Part shown: in pieces, positions 679 to 12,493 of the stretch
How the letters are laid out: the number at the start of each line of letters is the position of its first letter
How positions within the stretch are numbered: position 1 is the stretch's first letter
IMG/VR virus record: IMGVR_UViG_3300023174_005299
Span: 1-64,000 of that record
Direction: 5' to 3' (one strand)
Source: a virus
DNA length: 64,000 bases
The notes under the pieces: model-generated
Told to the model about the DNA's origin: nothing
Seen by the model: only the letters and a program-made list of their open reading frames with translations
The model's database searches: none
Program-made: the position numbers and the translations under genes

Positions 679-1779
679 TTAAAATAAATCTACTTGTTCC
701 CACGGCAAGTTTTCCTTGCCAAAGTGACCATAGTTGGTTGTTGAGCTGTAGATAGGGCGGAACAAGTTAAATCTTTCGATGATACCTCGAGGAGTTAGAT
801 CAACATTGTCTTGAATCCATTTAGTCAATCTACGTCCTTGTGCGGCATCGGCAGTTTCAACATAGAAACTCATTGGTTGTGCCATACCGATTGCATAACT
901 AATCTGTACGTTTGCCCAAGGTGCTTGGCCACTGGCTACAATATTCTTGGCAAGGTAACGCATCATATAGGCGGCACTACGATCCACTTTAGTAGGATCT
1001 TTGCCACTGAAGGCTCCGCCACCATGAGCACTATAGCCACCGTAAGTATCAACAATAATCTTACGGCCAGTAAGCCCAGTATCGCCATCAGGACCACCAA
1101 TAACAAATCTACCAGTGGGGTTAATAAAGAATTCAGTTTCATTGTCTACGTATTTCTCTGGTAATACTCCACGAATAATATTTTCTACTACCATTCGAAC
1201 TTGTTCAATGCTGGCGCTTTCTGCGTGTTGAGTTGAACACACCACTTTGGCAATACGTCGTGGTGTGCCATCATCATTGTATTCAAATGTGACTTGACTC
1301 TTGGCATCAGGTTCTAACCAGACTACTGTACCTGCTTTGCGAATTTTAGCAAGTTCTTCTACAATACGATGGCTCCAATAAATTGCACTTGGCATATATG
1401 AAGGAGTTTCATTGCAAGCATAACCAAACATCAAACCTTGGTCGCCAGCACCAAATGTGTCAGTACCTAGTGCAATATCGGCACTTTGTCCGTGTAGTAG
1501 GTTAGTAATCTCTACAGTACGCCAATCAAAGCCGGATTGTTCATACCCAACATCTCTAATAACTCTGCGAACAGCACTGTTGATTGCCTCATCGGGAACC
1601 AGTCCCTTAAACTCACCAGCAATAACTACACGATTAGTAGTAACCAATGTTTCACACGCACACCTCAATGCTGGATTCTTTTGCGCCATAAACAAATCTA
1701 AAACAGCATCACTGATGGCATCAGCAACTTTATCAGGATGTCCTTCACTGACACTTTCACTAGTAAACAAATAACTCAT
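679..1779 (-). CDS. metK: S-adenosylmethionine synthetase
   Basis: FTSESVSEGHPDK, GAGDQG, GGGAFSGKDPTKVDRS signatures; start at 1779 with AAGGA RBS. Confidence 0.98.
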   Translation of the reverse strand: MSYLFTSESVSEGHPDKVADAISDAVLDLFMAQKNPALRCACETLVTTNRVVIAGEFKGLVPDEAINSAVRRVIRDVGYEQSGFDWRTVEITNLLHGQSADIALGTDTFGAGDQGLMFGYACNETPSYMPSAIYWSHRIVEELAKIRKAGTVVWLEPDAKSQVTFEYNDDGTPRRIAKVVCSTQHAESASIEQVRMVVENIIRGVLPEKYVDNETEFFINPTGRFVIGGPDGDTGLTGRKIIVDTYGGYSAHGGGAFSGKDPTKVDRSAAYMMRYLAKNIVASGQAPWANVQISYAIGMAQPMSFYVETADAAQGRRLTKWIQDNVDLTPRGIIERFNLFRPIYSSTTNYGHFGKENLPWEQVDLF

Positions 1780-1789
1780 TAATTTCCTT

Positions 1790-2083
1790 TTACCAACACT
1801 CAACGTCGGTGATGTCCATCTTAATTGATTGCTTGGGATCAAACTCAATGGTGACTGTGGGACCAATACCATTGGTGCTTACTTCACTCCACACTATTTG
1901 ATCCACGCTGTCATACATTTCAAAAACTTCTTGCAGTCGTTCAAACTGCTTACGTGTGATTATTATGGAAGTTGGTCGATTGCGCATCTTGATAAATTCC
2001 TCGTATTTTTCTTGTGTGCCCACACTGTAGCCACCGTCGCCTGAGTGGAGATCGGCACCTACTTGAATATTTTGGTTCATCAA
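1790..2083 (-). CDS. hypothetical protein
   Basis: 97-aa ORF with ATGA-type overlap to queE. Confidence 0.55.
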   Translation of the reverse strand: MMNQNIQVGADLHSGDGGYSVGTQEKYEEFIKMRNRPTSIIITRKQFERLQEVFEMYDSVDQIVWSEVSTNGIGPTVTIEFDPKQSIKMDITDVECW

Positions 2084-2964
2084 GTGCCCCAGGCATTGCG
2101 CCAGATGTCAACTTGTAATCTTGGACTGTAGCGATAACCACGACGCATGGCCAGTGTGGCCACCTGTTGTGTATTGAGATTGTACACACCTGGCACTCCG
2201 CCAATGGGCATTAAATACACAGGTCCGCCAAACCCGGCACTGCGAAACTCTTCCACAGCACGATCCACATCACGCAAGTCCTGCTCATTACCCACAACAA
2301 ACTTCAAGTAAGTCATGCCCACGCTTTCATACTCTTTGATGATATTGGGATTGATGGCCTTGTCCCACGACTCGCCGGAACACGGAAGCTTGGGACTGAC
2401 ACTGAATGTCAACCGGTCATAATCTCTACCATGACGAGTAAATTCCTCAAACAAGTACTCACGAACATTGTCATACAAGGGTTGAGTACCATTGGTTTCA
2501 AATGTTAGATTTCGCAGTCCACGATCTCGACACTGTTGAATCATTTCTGGGTACAGTTGTTGATACGCCAAAAACGGTTCACCACCTGTGATCACCAAGT
2601 GTACATCATCAAGTCCATTGACCCCACTCCATTGTTGTCCCGGGATCATGTCATGCATCTTGTTCACAATTTCTTCAACTGTGCCCTGCTCATTGAACTT
2701 TTTAAATTCTGGATAGATACTTGCATAAGTGTCACAGCCCGAAGTCACCAATGGCAATTCTTCAAACTTATTGTACTTGTCAATGTTACGAATGATCTCA
2801 ACGACTTCAGGATTGGGACCGTTGATGACTTCGTCGCGGTCTCGTCCAAATTTCTTGCAACGAAAGTTACAGCCAAAGGTACGAAAGAAAACGCTGGGTA
2901 CTCCGGCCCAACGTCCTTCACCTTGCAAACTATAAAAGATTTCTGTATAGGTAATTTTTTCCAT
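2080..2964 (-). CDS. queE: 7-carboxy-7-deazaguanine synthase (radical SAM)
   Basis: EIFYSLQGEG, RTFGCNFRC...CDT (long insertion in the Cys motif), ITGGEP, ETNGT, VSPK, SPRLQVDIW; folE and queD nearby. Confidence 0.92.
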   Translation of the reverse strand: MEKITYTEIFYSLQGEGRWAGVPSVFFRTFGCNFRCKKFGRDRDEVINGPNPEVVEIIRNIDKYNKFEELPLVTSGCDTYASIYPEFKKFNEQGTVEEIVNKMHDMIPGQQWSGVNGLDDVHLVITGGEPFLAYQQLYPEMIQQCRDRGLRNLTFETNGTQPLYDNVREYLFEEFTRHGRDYDRLTFSVSPKLPCSGESWDKAINPNIIKEYESVGMTYLKFVVGNEQDLRDVDRAVEEFRSAGFGGPVYLMPIGGVPGVYNLNTQQVATLAMRRGYRYSPRLQVDIWRNAWGT

Positions 2965-2999
2965 GTTGTATTATACTATAAAAATAAGATTTATGCTAG

Positions 3000-3776
3000 T
3001 TAAATTTTTCTTGCTTTTACCAAAAGGTGCCATCCTAGATACTCTCTAACAGCTTCCCTCATGACTTCTGGCATGGCAGCAAACCAGGGTTCTAATTCAA
3101 AATGTCCTTGTTTGTATTCAGGCACATTGTACATAAAACAATGATCCTGTCTCACTCGTTCAACGTTGAACAACCCATCTAAGAGTCCAACTATGTCTTC
3201 TTTGGTGTAGGCGTCGGCATATGGACATTCGGCTTGTGCTTCAAATTGGTCTAGACCTTTTTGTATCATGGCATACTTCCAACTGTTCCTTGCATATACC
3301 ATGAATCTAAATTCGCCGTCAACGTCCAAGACTTCATGCAAATTCTTAATATGCTCTCGCATGCCCGGGAAATGATGCAACACACCATAACTGTATACAA
3401 GATCAAATTTTCCTATGTGTGATAACAGATCTTTGTCAGTGACACTGCCTTCGTGAAATTCTCCAGCAAGATCCAACAACTCGAATCGATCTCGACAGAT
3501 TTGAATGCTCTGGGAACTTATGTCTATACCAGTGTAATGTGCGCCATGGCGAGCAAATTGCTCAGCATCAGTGCCAATGCCACATCCAATCTCCAACACA
3601 CGTTTGCCCCTCCACAAATGGAACTTGGCAAAATCCAGCACATGGGGTTCAGCACGATATCTTTTTTCTGTGACTTGTTGAAAATACAATTCAGTACCCA
3701 CAGGCTCGTTGCTGTGGTTGATGTTGCAAGGTTGTCGATTCCAGTAGTCAACTATGTTTTGATCTAATGTTGTCAT
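3000..3776 (-). CDS. class I SAM-dependent methyltransferase
   Basis: VLEIGCGIG motif I, GIDIS, FDLVYSYGVLHH. Confidence 0.9.
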   Translation of the reverse strand: MTTLDQNIVDYWNRQPCNINHSNEPVGTELYFQQVTEKRYRAEPHVLDFAKFHLWRGKRVLEIGCGIGTDAEQFARHGAHYTGIDISSQSIQICRDRFELLDLAGEFHEGSVTDKDLLSHIGKFDLVYSYGVLHHFPGMREHIKNLHEVLDVDGEFRFMVYARNSWKYAMIQKGLDQFEAQAECPYADAYTKEDIVGLLDGLFNVERVRQDHCFMYNVPEYKQGHFELEPWFAAMPEVMREAVREYLGWHLLVKARKI

Positions 3777-4591
3777 AAAAAGTTTTCTTTGTTTATCCGT
3801 TTAATCTGTTGATTGGGGTCATATTCGGGGCTGACCATTTTTTCCCAGGGATCTTGTGTGCCATTTAAAATATTTGTAAACCAAGAAATGTCTTCGCCTT
3901 GGCTTTTAAGATATTCTGCTATTTTTCGGCAATCACCAAGCCGATGAGTGCGCCAAGATATGAAATTAAAATCCTTGGGATGACCTGGATTACCTTCTAG
4001 CATGGGCCGATTGTTAAAAGTCTCATCGTTGTTGTTGCCAGTCAAATCAAATCTATCATGTGTTACATCAACATCAAGGTTGACAACAATGTCAACCATG
4101 TAACTAATTTGACTAATCCAAGCGTCGGATAACTGGTGAGCACTCAAATATCCAAACAGTTCAAACCATTTGCGTGGGACAATTGGAAAAACAGCATAGG
4201 GGTGGCAATTGTGTGTGGGTATACGCAATGTTCGGAATTTGCCAGTGTGTTCGGTGATTTTTAAATCCCAATCTTTGGTGTGAATAATTGCATCATCATT
4301 CCAAAACATAATCCAATCTCCAGTGGCATGTTTGGCCAATGAATTTACATATTCATTTAGTCTTTCATACCCAACTGGTTCATAGATCAGTGCTGTGAAT
4401 GGCATGCTGTGTTGCTCAATCACAGGTTGAATATTGGTTGAAAAGTACTCAATGCTGTCAGTGTCATCGTTGTCAAACGCCAGCAGTAATTGCACTTTTG
4501 TTATGTCATTGGCTGTGTCAATTAAACTTTTGACACTGGCTTCTAACGAAGCAGTCCTGCCACGAGTGGGTAATAGTACAGAAATATTCAT
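3773..4591 (-). CDS. glycosyltransferase, GT-A/GT2 family
   Basis: ISVLLPTRGR N-terminus, DNDD, GDWIMFWNDD DxD-like motif. Confidence 0.85.
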   Translation of the reverse strand: MNISVLLPTRGRTASLEASVKSLIDTANDITKVQLLLAFDNDDTDSIEYFSTNIQPVIEQHSMPFTALIYEPVGYERLNEYVNSLAKHATGDWIMFWNDDAIIHTKDWDLKITEHTGKFRTLRIPTHNCHPYAVFPIVPRKWFELFGYLSAHQLSDAWISQISYMVDIVVNLDVDVTHDRFDLTGNNNDETFNNRPMLEGNPGHPKDFNFISWRTHRLGDCRKIAEYLKSQGEDISWFTNILNGTQDPWEKMVSPEYDPNQQIKRINKENFL

Positions 4592-4602
4592 TTTAATATA
4601 TG

Positions 4603-5088
4603 TTAGATATCAAACTCGCCATCTTCTCTATGACCACTACGGCCTGCCATGTTACTATCAGTCTCACGCACCTCTACTCTACAGCACCATACACGTTTGG
4701 CTTCTTCACTACCGCAGTTGGGTAAAAAGATTGTGTTGATATATTCATATAAGAAATCAGCAAGACCTTCACATCCTGTACGCTCAACTTCTGTGATCTT
4801 TGCCAGCTTTAAACGGCCTAGTTCCAGTAGGTGTTCACGCATGGGATCATCTTGTGCAACTAATAGAGTATGGTCAAACCATTCTTCTAATTTATCTTTG
4901 AGTGGGCGTAAGCCACCGAAGTCAGTTACCCAGTTACGGGCATCTAATGTATCAGCTTCAAACTCAAAGTGAAAACTCATGGCATAGCCATGAATCAAAT
5001 TACAATGACTGTCGGCACGCCATTGACGGTATGCCACAGGACCTGTTTGTCTGTATGTCTTTGTTGAAAAGAACTTTTTATTTGCCAT
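4603..5088 (-). CDS. queD: 6-carboxy-5,6,7,8-tetrahydropterin synthase
   Basis: CNLIHGY, DFGGL, FDHTLL, E-x-LA, VEVRET motifs of the PTPS/QueD T-fold. Confidence 0.9.
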   Translation of the reverse strand: MANKKFFSTKTYRQTGPVAYRQWRADSHCNLIHGYAMSFHFEFEADTLDARNWVTDFGGLRPLKDKLEEWFDHTLLVAQDDPMREHLLELGRLKLAKITEVERTGCEGLADFLYEYINTIFLPNCGSEEAKRVWCCRVEVRETDSNMAGRSGHREDGEFDI

Positions 5089-5160
5089 GTTTTCTCCTAT
5101 GTTAGATTATAGCATAGGCAGCAGAATTTGTAAAGCGGGAGTGATGCCAAAAGACCGCTA
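5089..5160 (-). promoter_or_regulatory. candidate cis-regulatory RNA (pseudoknot plus SD-sequestering hairpin) in the queD leader
   Basis: Minus strand: AGCGG/CCGCT stem, loop GGCA can pair with downstream TGCC, and a CCTATG...CATAGG hairpin covers the AGGAG RBS. Confidence 0.5.
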
Positions 5161-5164
5161 ATAA

Positions 5165-5821
5165 TTACAAGGTTTTCCAAGTCTCAATTGATATAAACTC
5201 TTTGACCCATGTTTGCTTGTTGTACTCGATATCACTGTACTGACAAGAGCAATGCCATTGAAAATTTTCCCAAGCAATTAAATCTCCCGGGGATTCCCAT
5301 TTTATAGTTTCTCGAACACTAAAGTTTGCTGATTCTTCTTTAAAAGATTCTGAATAGTTAGGCAAAATATCCAGCATATCTGAGTAAAGTGGTTCGTCTA
5401 GATTAGGCGGACTGTTAAAAAAAGCAGTACCCGGGGCGTAGCCTTTCTTCCACCATAGTGGTATCAAGAAAATAAAACCACCGCGATGGCCATTATTGCG
5501 ATGTTCAGTTAACCAACTTGTGTTCCTGACATCTGAGTGAGGTCCAATTGGCGCTGAAAGATATCTTATACTAGAATCATAAATGGTAAAGTCTCCAAAG
5601 TCTTCTTTTAATTTAGAAACTATTTGATGAATTGGACTGTCTAATTTTTCGTAGTGTAAAATTCGATCCCAACATCCTTGATATCCAATTTTTGATTTTT
5701 CCCAGGTATATGGTCCACTGGATGCCAACAAAGAATCATTTATTTTATTATAGTATGATCTAAATTGATCAACAAAATCTACTGTAAGGTAGTTCTTTTT
5801 GTATATAATTTTTTTCTGCAT
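5165..5821 (-). CDS. hypothetical protein, possible 2OG-Fe(II) oxygenase fold
   Basis: HSD...H pattern (GPHSD, GDLIAW, WHCS); AT-rich. Confidence 0.45.
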   Translation of the reverse strand: MQKKIIYKKNYLTVDFVDQFRSYYNKINDSLLASSGPYTWEKSKIGYQGCWDRILHYEKLDSPIHQIVSKLKEDFGDFTIYDSSIRYLSAPIGPHSDVRNTSWLTEHRNNGHRGGFIFLIPLWWKKGYAPGTAFFNSPPNLDEPLYSDMLDILPNYSESFKEESANFSVRETIKWESPGDLIAWENFQWHCSCQYSDIEYNKQTWVKEFISIETWKTL

Positions 5822-6223: not shown

Positions 6224-6907
6224 TCAGTTTCTCTTGCAGTTGTTGACAATGTTCATGAACTCCACACGCACTGATGGATCATTCTTAAAAACACCACCAA
6301 GCTTGCTGGTAACTGTTGAACTACCTACATCTTCGACTCCGCGGCTCTTGACACAATAGTGTTGTGCATCTACCACAACTGCAATATCGTCGGTTTCTAG
6401 AATATACTGTAGAGCATAGTACACTTGTTCGGTCAGGCGTTCTTGAATCTGAGGTCTCTTGCTAAAGTACTCAACCACTCGATTGATCTTTGACAAGCCT
6501 AGTACTTTTTGTTTGGGAATGTAGCCCACTGTGGCCACTCCATCAATGACAACAAAGTGGTGCTCGCAGTTGCTTTGCACGTTGACGTTGCGCTCAACCA
6601 CCATCTCATCGTACTTCATCTTGTTGTCAACTGTGGTACATTTGGGAAATGCTTCGTAGTCTAGTCCCCAAAAGATTTCATTCACATACATCTTGGCCAC
6701 ACGCTTGGGCGTGTCCATCAAGCTGTCATCGCTCAAGTCCAGGCCCAACACTTCCATGATGTGTTTAAAATCACGCTCAATCAAGTCAATCTTGTCTTTG
6801 CGATCAACAGCATGTTGAAATGTGGGAGTTTCTACTCCACACTTGACCAAGTGTTGGTGTACACGTTGACCCAGATCGGGGTCACATTTAGTTTTATTAT
6901 AACTCAT
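6224..6907 (-). CDS. folE: GTP cyclohydrolase I
   Basis: TPKRVAKMY, CEHH, GLSKINR, QIQERLT, HYCVKSRG; RBS AAGGAAGG before ATG 6907. Confidence 0.97.
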   Translation of the reverse strand: MSYNKTKCDPDLGQRVHQHLVKCGVETPTFQHAVDRKDKIDLIERDFKHIMEVLGLDLSDDSLMDTPKRVAKMYVNEIFWGLDYEAFPKCTTVDNKMKYDEMVVERNVNVQSNCEHHFVVIDGVATVGYIPKQKVLGLSKINRVVEYFSKRPQIQERLTEQVYYALQYILETDDIAVVVDAQHYCVKSRGVEDVGSSTVTSKLGGVFKNDPSVRVEFMNIVNNCKRN

Positions 6908-6943
6908 TTTGTTTTCCTTCCTTACGCGGATTAATTTGAAAAG

Positions 6944-6965
6944 TTTGCTACCTTTGTGTAGCAAA
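6944..6965 (-). promoter_or_regulatory. 8-bp perfect hairpin in the folE leader
   Basis: TTTGCTAC-N6-GTAGCAAA lying just downstream of a CTAAATA motif. Confidence 0.4.
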
Positions 6966-6999: not shown

Positions 7000-7965
7000 T
7001 TATGCAAGTTTTTTATTATACCAGGCCCAGGCATGAGTGATCATGTCAGCTAATGTGTATTCTGGTTGCCAATTGCCCACTTTGGCAAACAGCGAGCTGT
7101 CAGCACACAACTTTTCTGGGTCTCCAGTCCGACGGTCACCGTACACTACGTTGACATTTTTTCCAGTAATCTTTGATACAGTATCAATTACTTCTTGGTT
7201 ACTGTGCATTTTATTCACACCAAGATTGTAAATGCCACATGGTACAGATGGATCAATGGCAGCCACATGTGCCCGAGCAATATCTGCCACATGCACATAG
7301 TCTCTTAAACAAGTTCCATCAGCAGTGTTATAATCTTTACCATAGCAAGTGAACTCGGTGTTGTCTCTAACGCTTTCAAGCAATTTTGCAATAATGTGTG
7401 AGGCACCAGTTCCTTGTCCATGTCTTGCTTCGGGGTCTGCGCCGGCAGCATTGAAGTACCTAAACGTCACAAAGTCCAAGCCATAAGCTTGTGCATAGCT
7501 TTGTAAAAACCATTCAGTCATTAATTTACTTTGCCCATATGGACTTATCGGTGCAGTAGGGTCGACTTCAAAACAAGGAGTCATTACAGGATCACCATAT
7601 ACTGCGGCACTACTGCTGTAGATAACTCTGGGACGATTTTCAAGGAACAACAATGCATCCAGCATTGCCAAAGTTTTGGCTGTGTTGTTGTGGAAATATT
7701 CTCTGGGATTATCATGACTTGGTCCCACCAAGCTTGTGCCAGCACAATGTACCACTGCTAGCACTTCCTCCGAAGCCAACATCTCCAACGATCTATTGCT
7801 GGCAAAATCAGTTTGTACAAACTGTCCAACATATGTTTGTAGATGCTCAGGCAATGGTAGTAAGTCAATGCCCACTACTCTGTACCCTTGTGAGTGCAAC
7901 TGTATTGCAGTCTGTCCACCAATGTAACCGCTTACTCCGGTCACTATAATAATATTACGATTCAA
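7000..7965 (-). CDS. galE: UDP-glucose 4-epimerase (extended SDR)
   Basis: TGVSGYIG, SSSAAVYG, YGQSK, FRYFNAAGA, DGTCLRDYVHV. Confidence 0.92.
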   Translation of the reverse strand: MNRNIIIVTGVSGYIGGQTAIQLHSQGYRVVGIDLLPLPEHLQTYVGQFVQTDFASNRSLEMLASEEVLAVVHCAGTSLVGPSHDNPREYFHNNTAKTLAMLDALLFLENRPRVIYSSSAAVYGDPVMTPCFEVDPTAPISPYGQSKLMTEWFLQSYAQAYGLDFVTFRYFNAAGADPEARHGQGTGASHIIAKLLESVRDNTEFTCYGKDYNTADGTCLRDYVHVADIARAHVAAIDPSVPCGIYNLGVNKMHSNQEVIDTVSKITGKNVNVVYGDRRTGDPEKLCADSSLFAKVGNWQPEYTLADMITHAWAWYNKKLA

Positions 7966-10467: not shown

Positions 10468-10973
10468 AATTTTGAATCTCCCTTGTAGTCATCCCAAGAA
10501 GTAAAAGTGTCACGGCTCATCAAGCTGTGTAGACTATGGCACCAAACGCCGGGATTGGTGGCGTCAAAGTCTTTGTCATCTATTTTTAACATTGTATTAT
10601 AATTCCATAGCTTTGTATATGGTATGCTTACTCGAATCTGTGGAATAAAGTTGCGATGCTCGCACAAACCACCATCATGAAATTCTTCCACATGGGTGAT
10701 TGGGATATCCAAACTACACAAATAGCCCTTGCTTAAAAAAGGCTGGATCATACTTTCCCAACGTTGCCATTCAAGTGCGCTATCAGGGTGAAAGCTGTGA
10801 TTGGCACCAAAGAAGATATGTTCGATGCCATCTGGATTTTTGCTAAAATGGTATGCAATTTTGTCAACTGGTTGTATGCCAACCACAAACAAAGTAGTTT
10901 TACCAAATGCTGGAGTACGCTCTACTTCGACCCCGGTAAAAAAATCAACATTGTCATGACCTTCTCGATTCAT
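10464..10973 (-). CDS. hypothetical protein between the dpdA-like and dpdL-like genes
   Basis: 169-aa ORF overlapping both neighbours (coupled); HIFFGANHSF motif. Confidence 0.65.
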   Translation of the reverse strand: MNREGHDNVDFFTGVEVERTPAFGKTTLFVVGIQPVDKIAYHFSKNPDGIEHIFFGANHSFHPDSALEWQRWESMIQPFLSKGYLCSLDIPITHVEEFHDGGLCEHRNFIPQIRVSIPYTKLWNYNTMLKIDDKDFDATNPGVWCHSLHSLMSRDTFTSWDDYKGDSKL

Positions 10974-12493
10974 TATACACTATCCTCTAATGCTGTCAGT
11001 AGTTCTGGGTTTAAATCATCTTCGGAATCCAAAGGATTGTCAACGTCAAACAGGTTGTTAAACATGGTATTGGCATTCACTGCTCGCTTACCAGTATAGC
11101 CACGAGTACCAATCACTCGTTCCCATATATTAGCATGATCATCAATAATTTGCAAGCTCTTCTGGCGATCCTTGGCTGCAAACACACGATTAATTACACT
11201 ACGGAAATCATACCAACGATCAGTTGGGTGCAACAGCATATCTGGTCCTTGCCCAGAATCATACACTCGATTTGCACGTTGTACTGCTTCAAGGTGCATC
11301 CAAGCATTGTGTCCCATGAGCAAGGCATAAGAGAAACTGTCCCATGATGTTTTACCTTCCTTGCCAATCTTATTTAGATCACCAGGCTTGTAAATGCAGA
11401 TATCGGATATCTTTAATCTACTGCTTATGGGACTATCTTCAAACTTGTCATGGATTCCATCTTGGCGCACAGCATCTCCAAACAGTCTTGAATCAAGTGA
11501 ATACTTTTTGTCATCCGCAGTGGCACTCATTCTATAACTCCACTTGTCACGATTCTCAGTAACAATTGAATGATAGAGTTGTCCATTTGCTGTGGCCAAG
11601 AATGGACTTGCGCAATCAAAGCTGATGGTAAAATTGGCATTGTGATGATATCGCACAGCACGTTGAATGTCTGTGAGCAACACTGCCCACTCTAATTTAC
11701 TGGTGCCCAAGAAGTGCATCCAATCATGCAGACCTTTTTCCAGCAAACCATCATGCATGAGGTTTACAATTCTCTTTAGCACAAGGTGCACATCACACAT
11801 GTTCTGCCCGCCCATGCCCCACCCATCAAAGGGCCTTTGGTGTTTGGCGGGGTCGCAGTAGTCTTTCATTAGACCGTACCAATGATCAGCTTCACCGTGA
11901 TTTGATCCTTGCAACACATTGAGAATCTTGACATCGCCATGACGATTGTTGATCCAGTATTCGTTGTTGAACTTACTGGCATTCACTGCATCATCATAGC
12001 TGTGAATGCCACAGGCTGCGGCAGCTTCTTTGTTGAGGTATGTCCAAGTTGGAATGTCCATGGTGAGCCCATGGGTGGCAATACCACACTGCCATTCCAA
12101 CACAGCTCGGCGTTTTTTCTCTGCGGCCTTGTCTTTGGGATCTGCCCATTGTCCGGGCCAAACACCTTTGGCAATTTGGAAACCACCCGAGTCACACAGC
12201 AATGTTGTGCCTGGCTCTCGATTCCTGAGCATGTCTTCTTTGGGAACATGTTTGGTAAGGTCCAAGTCAGCATGACCGGCACTGTAAAGACTCCACTTGT
12301 AGGGAAACAAAGCTTTTTGAGAATTCAACCAGTTCAATTGTTCCATGTCTGTTATACCTGCCGGCATTCGAGACTTGGGGATGTATTCATTAGATCGCTG
12401 TTTGCCTATGTAGGTTGCATAGAAACCCGACACTGCTGGTAAAAACAAAGCGTAGTCTAATTGTTTGGCGGTTAAGTTGTCTTGTTCAGTCAT
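10973..12493 (-). CDS. dpdA: tRNA-guanine-transglycosylase-like protein (DpdA-like 7-deazaguanine insertion enzyme)
   Basis: DSGGFQ, MDIP, LNVLQG, GWGMGG, MHFLG, SFDCASP are the TGT TIM-barrel motifs; deazaguanine gene context. Confidence 0.75.
   Translation of the reverse strand: MTEQDNLTAKQLDYALFLPAVSGFYATYIGKQRSNEYIPKSRMPAGITDMEQLNWLNSQKALFPYKWSLYSAGHADLDLTKHVPKEDMLRNREPGTTLLCDSGGFQIAKGVWPGQWADPKDKAAEKKRRAVLEWQCGIATHGLTMDIPTWTYLNKEAAAACGIHSYDDAVNASKFNNEYWINNRHGDVKILNVLQGSNHGEADHWYGLMKDYCDPAKHQRPFDGWGMGGQNMCDVHLVLKRIVNLMHDGLLEKGLHDWMHFLGTSKLEWAVLLTDIQRAVRYHHNANFTISFDCASPFLATANGQLYHSIVTENRDKWSYRMSATADDKKYSLDSRLFGDAVRQDGIHDKFEDSPISSRLKISDICIYKPGDLNKIGKEGKTSWDSFSYALLMGHNAWMHLEAVQRANRVYDSGQGPDMLLHPTDRWYDFRSVINRVFAAKDRQKSLQIIDDHANIWERVIGTRGYTGKRAVNANTMFNNLFDVDNPLDSEDDLNPELLTALEDSV

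Follow-up and report, generated by a model that had tools for sequence, protein, structure and literature searches.

A covarying pseudoknot leader before phage QueD-like genes: a candidate translational ON riboswitch with a preQ1-I-like fold

What is the role of the 76 nucleotides (5164-5089, minus strand) that separate a 218-aa ORF from a queD-like gene in an uncultured phage: do they form a promoter, a set of chance hairpins or an RNA that senses a metabolite? We address this in a stretch of 64,000 nucleotides (hereafter, the window), which covers positions 1 to 64,000 of IMG/VR virus record IMGVR_UViG_3300023174_005299 and is part of a 72.5-kb record with an estimated completeness of 21%. 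The record encodes a T4-type DNA polymerase, and complete relatives are about 350 kb long. An earlier note, made from the letters of the window, had described a riboswitch-like leader at 5089-5160 (minus strand) in which an H-type pseudoknot competes with a hairpin that buries the ribosome-binding site (RBS) of the gene, and we located all of the stems that it had named, each in its place (Table 1).

The leader and its neighbourhood

The gene that follows the leader encodes a protein with a PF01242 match (Table 1) and a score of 35.6 bits for the QueD model TIGR03367, under the cut-off of 89.25; a PDB sequence search with this protein gave 0 matches. When aligned with the canonical-looking relatives at loci L120 and L180, it carries Tyr where these have His (GH-R to AY-R and HGH to HGY). 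As the replaced histidines are zinc ligands in QueD/PTPS, this QueD-like clade may have an altered active site.

The minus strand also encodes a HIT protein, a GTP cyclohydrolase I (FolE) and a QueE-like radical-SAM ORF (Table 1). In the regions that flank folE-queD (679-4591 and 7000-7965, minus strand) we found a SAM synthetase, the QueE-like ORF, a methyltransferase, a family-2 glycosyltransferase and an NAD epimerase/dehydratase, a set that suggests a larger base-modification or sugar-modification cluster. Further away, a 506-aa ORF (10973-12493, minus strand) matches nothing in Pfam or NCBIfam; searched by its features in the protein Atlas, it gave at rank 14 (score 0.93) a viral TGT-like cluster in which 17% of the members carry PF01702, and that the ORF is a DpdA-like enzyme is only a lead. 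Pfam searches for QueC and TGT found nothing in the window's own record, while in five relatives they found QueC matches that are partial or sub-threshold only (one of them partial, over 57 positions) and no Pfam TGT. QueC above cut-off was not found beside the motif loci either. Thus, preQ0 and preQ1 are not obvious products of these phages.

Taken by itself, the leader of the window is not beyond chance and could be a promoter with chance hairpins. When 91 nt were folded as a single sequence, the minimum free energy (MFE) had a z of -0.31, with 73 of 200 shuffles equally or more stable, and Rfam, scanned with 2.5 kb, with the 111 nt that surround the element and with 19 diverse loci, gave chance matches only. 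A preQ1-II match (16.6 bits, E = 1.3) was rejected, as it aligned only the unstructured ends and deleted 69 core positions. The GenBank phage collection held no relative of the leader, and its sole match was a segment of 114 nt inside the PTPS coding part, in Sinorhizobium phage Phosso. Our literature search, which covered openly accessible text so that a published description could exist, found no paper on the motif. An intrinsic terminator of the upstream gene was rejected too: none of the 15 terminator-like sites in 12 kb lies at 5089-5164, and the P1 loop measures 16 nt and has no T run, where the criterion for a terminator was a G+C-rich stem, a loop of 3-8 nt and then a T run.

Table 1. 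Features of the leader and of the genes around it, by position in the window
Feature	Position	Strand	Remarks
GTP cyclohydrolase I (FolE)	6224-6964	-	Same strand as the queD-like gene
Upstream ORF, 218 aa, no known family	5165-5821	-	Stop TAA at 5167-5165, 5 nt before P1
P1 5' strand, AGCGG	5155-5159	-	Pairs with 5134-5138
L1, UCU and variable spacer UUU	5149-5154	-	Spacer of 0 to 8 nt across relatives
P2 5' strand: variable GGCA 5148-5145, invariant U 5144, CA 5143-5142	5142-5148	-	GGCA complementary to UGCC (5120-5117); A5142 pairs with U5123
L2, CUC	5139-5141	-	Last letter is the invariant C and adjoins the P1 3' strand
P1 3' strand, CCGCU	5134-5138	-	Partner of AGCGG
L3 linker, UUACAAAUUC	5124-5133	-	10 nt
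P2 3' strand: UG 5123-5122, C 5121, UGCC 5120-5117	5117-5123	-	C5121 lies opposite U5144
Sigma-70-like promoter, TTTACA-17-TGcTATAAT	5106-5134	-	11/12 hexamer matches plus TG; overlaps the element
Anti-SD hairpin: CCUAUG 5118-5113, 11-nt loop, CAUAGG 5101-5096	5096-5118	-	Seen also in the centroid fold
Shine-Dalgarno (SD), AGGAG	5094-5098	-	5 nt before ATG (5088-5086); three letters lie within the hairpin 3' arm
Start region, CAUGGCA	5083-5089	-	Alternative partner of UGCC..AUG (5120-5113)
Candidate regulated gene: PTPS/QueD-family protein, 161 aa	4603-5088	-	PF01242, E = 7.9e-16
QueE-like radical-SAM ORF	2080-2964	-	NCBIfam E about 1e-12, below cut-offs

Covariation, conserved letters and gene linkage

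To place the leader among its relatives, we used two samples. With the QueD-like protein as query we obtained 80 viral loci, whose proteins are 91-99% identical, and the element is present in 79 of them (the remaining one, L026, ends 35 nt before the gene). The leaders of these 80 loci diverge far more than the proteins do, and with compensating changes. A degenerate DNA pattern of the conserved core added at least 120 further stretches, and from the 199 instances among the matches listed we drew 100 distinct aptamers, which were aligned with MAFFT (alignment A1). In A1, the rows found by the DNA pattern (L082-L200) have invariant loop letters partly by construction. Because half of A1 was thus found with a pattern that fixes loop letters, we collected the second sample via proteins, from two divergent PTPS types (35 and 80 loci).

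Model R1, which holds four P1 pairs, matches immediately before the gene at 81 of the first 100 loci found by protein, and in 29 of the 100 it scores under 40 bits or gives no match; about 12 of the 35 loci of the L098 type are without the element. Alignment A2 comprises 61 distinct rows from protein-found loci. It is not wholly independent of the bias in A1 because R1 was built from A1 rows; P2 is absent from R1.

Both helices of the pseudoknot covary in both alignments. In A1, 84.7% of the cells in the four scorable P1 pairs and six P2 pairs are paired (66.5% when shuffled), and the covariation score is 0.469 (0.156 shuffled); in A2, 85.9% are paired (62.0% shuffled) and the score is 0.574 (0.179 shuffled). 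None of 500 shuffles reaches the pairing or the score in A1, and none is as high in A2. When the registers are slid, by 1-3 columns in A1, pairing falls to 29-55% in A1 and 19.5-50.6% in A2. The earlier note had proposed conservation and covariation of the stems as a check on its own reading, and on these two separately gathered alignments the stems come through it, with a covariation across relatives that is far beyond chance.

P1 is 98.5-99.1% paired across relatives and changes on both sides in three of its four scored pairs, occurring as AGCGG/CCGCT, ACCGG/CCGGT, AGAGG/CCTCT, AGTGG/CCACT, ATCGG/CCGAT and TGCGG/CCGCA. P2 is more variable: each of its four junction-proximal pairs takes 3-6 pair types, and A1 has 20 distinct 4-nt strand pairs that are fully paired, and A2 has 17. 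Its core forms include GGCA:TGCC (the window), GGCG:CGCC, GGTG:CACC, GGAA:TTCC, ATGC:GCAT and GACG:CGTC. Within this core G.U is commoner than A.C (28 versus 15 in A1, 26 versus 7 in A2), which points to an RNA of the gene's strand.

As a rare change from UCA to UCG coincided with one from CUGC to CCGC, we examined whether P2 has an extra pair. The scan for UCG with CCGC (G-C) found 81 stretches, of which 78 are true instances with a proper P1 and N-C-U, spanning five P1 types and several platform types; by comparison, UCA with CCGC (A x C) gave 9 stretches with one true motif, and UCG with CUGC (G.U) gave 0. This A-U/G-C swap indicates that P2 continues past the invariant U facing the invariant C into a C-G and an A-U (or G-C) pair. 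It agrees with the covariation of the two helices, and the H-type pseudoknot that the earlier note had proposed for the window stands: the comparison establishes a compact H-type pseudoknot as the predicted fold of the first 43 nt of the leader (5159-5117).

The refined architecture has a P1 of 5 bp, a P2 made of four variable bp, the U facing C, C-G and A-U, an L2 of 2-3 nt that ends in the invariant C, and an L3 of 10 nt with three invariant adenines. Over the 59 protein-ascertained rows, UCA, the C of L2 and A-N-A-N-A-Y-U-C-U-G-C are invariant or nearly so. L1 is N-C-U (ACT in 23, TCT in 20, CCT in 15), columns 26-27 of A2, at the end of L2, are C in 56-57 of the 59 rows, and the three alternating adenines of L3 with the Y-U-C that follows are invariant in 59/59. 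The linker consensus of A2, W-U-A-H-A-N-A-Y-U-C-U-G-C, is conserved also where no -10 box follows. One locus without an R1 match (L233:1420-1500) has a shorter linker after P1, CTAATTCTGC, with 10 letters versus 13; linker length is therefore not absolutely fixed.

The element is closely tied to one gene family. The downstream protein belongs to the PTPS cluster in 122 of 124 distinct cases among the matches listed, the exceptions being L073 (a cupin ORF, then queD) and L121 (an ORF of no family). These proteins are 26-100% identical to that of the window, and eight of eight divergent representatives pass PF01242. At L141, L145 and L121, aptamer and platform precede an ORF that starts with TTG and is very short or unrelated, and such non-PTPS ORFs may reflect gene replacement or decay.

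The element occurs once in the window, and R1 finds one strong match (51-62 bits) per genome in five of five records (the window's record and four complete relatives), with a second-best match of 18.6 bits in the per-genome scan that is noise. A repeated cassette of the PeSL type was rejected on this count; PeSLs are promoter/stem-loop cassettes of T4-type phages with many intergenic copies per genome. Hundreds of uncultured phages retain the element, and its instances lie on viral contigs only. A strict pattern, by which divergent forms could be missed, did not find the motif in 185,579 prokaryote species genomes (one genome each). Bacterial occurrence was rejected: seven stretches match the pattern, none with P1 pairing or a PTPS gene.

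Predicted hiding of the ribosome site, and promoters

That the pseudoknot and the RBS-hiding helix compete for one strand, as the earlier note had supposed, is borne out well beyond the window: of 197 distinct leaders, 187 share the P2 3' strand between the two, the six letters after CUGC pairing in the MFE fold with the region from the SD to AUG+5, compared to 53% in a control with the upstream part shuffled. In the window, the P2 3' strand and the anti-SD hairpin have CC (5118-5117) in common, and the CCUAUG/CAUAGG hairpin covers the AGG of the SD; the MFE fold of the platform (-7.3 kcal/mol) instead pairs UGCC with the GGCA of AUGGCA, and AUG with CAU. Other phages carry a G(U/C)CAUC:GAUGGC helix that spans the start codon, or anti-SD helices of the ACUCC:GGAGU type, so that RBS or start hiding is done by at least three unlike designs. 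Along with the predicted fold, its conservation and its link to a PTPS/QueD gene, this shared strand is established by the comparison of leaders.

The hiding helices themselves appear weak in covariation. The CCUAUG-type hairpin, present in 113 leaders, is identical in 101, compensated in 2 (CCUAUA/UAUAGG) and has U.G in 9, and in the start-codon type the observed pairing is attained by 787 of 2000 and by 32 of 2000 shuffles. The platform has a z versus shuffles of -1.1 in the window and of -1.7 on average across leaders. Blocking its first four letters in silico costs a mean of 3.4 kcal/mol; the lower of the SD and AUG accessibilities then goes up in only 96 of 197 leaders and down in 69.

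As its P2 strand is shared with a helix that hides the SD or AUG, we read the element as an ON device. The 76-nt gap would be transcribed together with the queD-like gene, and the end of the P2 3' strand would be the start of the SD-hiding helix (CCUAUG/CAUAGG, or UGCC/GGCA across the start codon). A stable pseudoknot would keep the hiding helix from forming, and the gene would be translated; were the pseudoknot open, the ribosome site would be hidden. We infer switching, its ON direction and a small-molecule effector. Such a competition implies an ON switch, the opposite of preQ1-I, and ON switches on biosynthetic genes are unusual, which counts against the ON-riboswitch reading.

The strong promoter-like site that overlaps the element (Table 1) also counts against a riboswitch. 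Its -35 and -10 hexamers have a spacing of 17 nt, within the 16-18 nt of sigma-70 promoters, and their 11 of 12 matching letters plus TG give it the joint best match count among the 40 sites that we found in 12 kb, and this arrangement is kept in 105 of 200 distinct leaders. Both points would fit an element that acts at the DNA level only, namely a sigma-70 promoter for queD, perhaps with an operator, with incidental RNA pairings. We consider this very improbable. The remaining 95 leaders hold the aptamer without its -10 partner, so the inner site cannot explain the conservation; the spacer letters are invariant, though promoters do not conserve spacers; and both stems covary, with G.U exceeding A.C. 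In addition, 31.4 sites were expected by chance in the 12 kb, which makes the match to the promoter consensus alone weak evidence. The promoter may well coexist with the RNA element, and may add an unregulated transcript.

Other boxes bear on where the transcript begins. TAAATA occurs 24 times in the window (both strands), 15 of these within 80 nt upstream of one of 73 ORFs, and owing to this concentration before genes it probably serves this phage as a promoter box. Of 200 leaders, 65 have TAAATA at 3-9 nt before P1 and 38 have a TTGACA-N17-TATAAT-like promoter whose end is 4-9 nt before P1, so that in these relatives the aptamer would stand at the transcript's 5' end. The window's own leader is without a TAAATA box, and transcription of its aptamer probably starts further upstream, for example at the box in front of folE. 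The T4 late promoter consensus, TATAAATA, is not enriched in the window (2 found versus 2.36 expected).

Candidate effectors and comparison with known systems

Covarying stems, conserved unpaired letters and a position in cis to coherent genes, by which riboswitches are generally recognized, are all present here. With a probability that we put somewhat above even, the leader would be a translational ON riboswitch of a new class, whose preQ1-I-like pseudoknot, ahead of the queD-like gene, owes its stability to a small molecule. The stabiliser would most likely have a guanine-like face, as do the candidates that we consider, a pterin, a compound of the 7-deazaguanine pathway, or guanine/GTP. More tentatively, and at somewhat less than an even chance, the element may be a viral-only class in which the invariant U/C of P2 or the C before P1 reads dihydroneopterin triphosphate, CPH4, CDG or 7-deazaguanine and switches on the phage's QueD-type enzyme. 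To our knowledge, riboswitch classes have so far been defined in cells. If true, it would be the first class to be known from viruses alone, and during infection it would couple the making of a modified DNA base to the availability of the metabolite. A phage-only class on a gene of a 7-deazaguanine-type pathway would also mean that phages evolve metabolite sensors of their own.

The same pseudoknot could control translation with no small-molecule ligand, either as the operator of a phage or host protein or as a ligand-free folding device whose folding depends on the transcript start or on ribosomes finishing the upstream ORF. We regard this as fairly unlikely, yet it fits all of the structural evidence equally well. 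The upstream stop is so near to P1 (5 nt) that a terminating ribosome would cover P1, and relatives vary in the promoter box just before P1. Against it stand at least 11 invariant unpaired letters in an RNA of 43 nt, held while the protein falls to 26% identity, which is the usual picture of a small-molecule pocket. Furthermore, no candidate binding protein is linked to the element and the neighbouring genes vary, with which a protein would still be compatible.

For the small-molecule switch that we prefer, among the closest known systems is preQ1-I, in which a specificity C immediately precedes the 3' strand of P1 and L3 carries adenines (PMC10622847). The element has the H-type pseudoknot of this class, with a P1 of 5-6 bp and a short P2. 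It resembles preQ1-I (RF00522, types I-III) in its small size, in a P1 of 5 bp, in the C next to the P1 3' strand, in the adenines of the linker across P1, in preceding a queuosine-type gene and in its proposed translational level of action; its invariant L2 C takes the same position as the preQ1-I specificity C, by place alone (PMC10622847). These likenesses, and the link to a que-type gene, favour a divergent preQ1-I member that has kept its affinity for host-made preQ1 or preQ0.

Several results make such a member improbable. With E allowed up to 10, RF00522 gives no match in the 111 nt that hold the element, none at the element in five of five genomes (the best elsewhere reaching at most 19.7 bits versus a cut-off of 39) and none in the 19 diverse loci, while one of 14 control genomes passes the cut-off; the earlier note's remark that the preQ1-I consensus is lacking thus proved right. 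The P2 3' strand holds the anti-SD strand and not the SD, an opposite logic, and both the lack of QueC above cut-off beside the loci and the failure of the strict pattern to find the motif in prokaryote genomes speak against membership. The element is not a member of RF00522, failing its covariance model as well as its logic.

The proposal is directly testable, given a short RNA, a small number of largely obtainable candidate ligands and natural variants that suggest compensatory mutants; the element would also mark this divergent PTPS clade in metagenomes.

Two other systems share parts of the design. In control of the T4 lysozyme type, an RBS-hiding hairpin has a promoter inside, which is a late promoter, and no aptamer is known to precede the hairpin. 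The window resembles this in that its TATAAT box sits in the loop of the anti-SD hairpin, and a transcript starting at this inner box would drop the 5' arm of the hairpin and be freely translated; unlike there, the site inside the hairpin is of a sigma-70-like kind, and 95 of 200 relatives lack it. The adenine (add) riboswitch is a translational ON switch whose bound aptamer takes a strand from the RBS-hiding helix, the same logic as that proposed here, whereas it is built on a three-way junction, belongs to a cellular host and has a known ligand.

Compared with preQ1-I, finally, the element differs in several respects. The linker of the element has 10 nt with alternating A and then YUC, not a poly-A run beside P2; P2 is longer (4-6 plus 2 bp), with an invariant U opposite C in its interior; the P2 3' strand would pair with the SD or AUG, where in preQ1-I it contains or abuts the SD and the ligand turns expression off, which implies ON versus OFF; and the element occurs only on viral contigs, in genomes without QueC above cut-off. 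We know the preQ1-I fold family only as OFF switches, and to this family the leader would, if our reading is right, add a translational ON switch of 43 nt.
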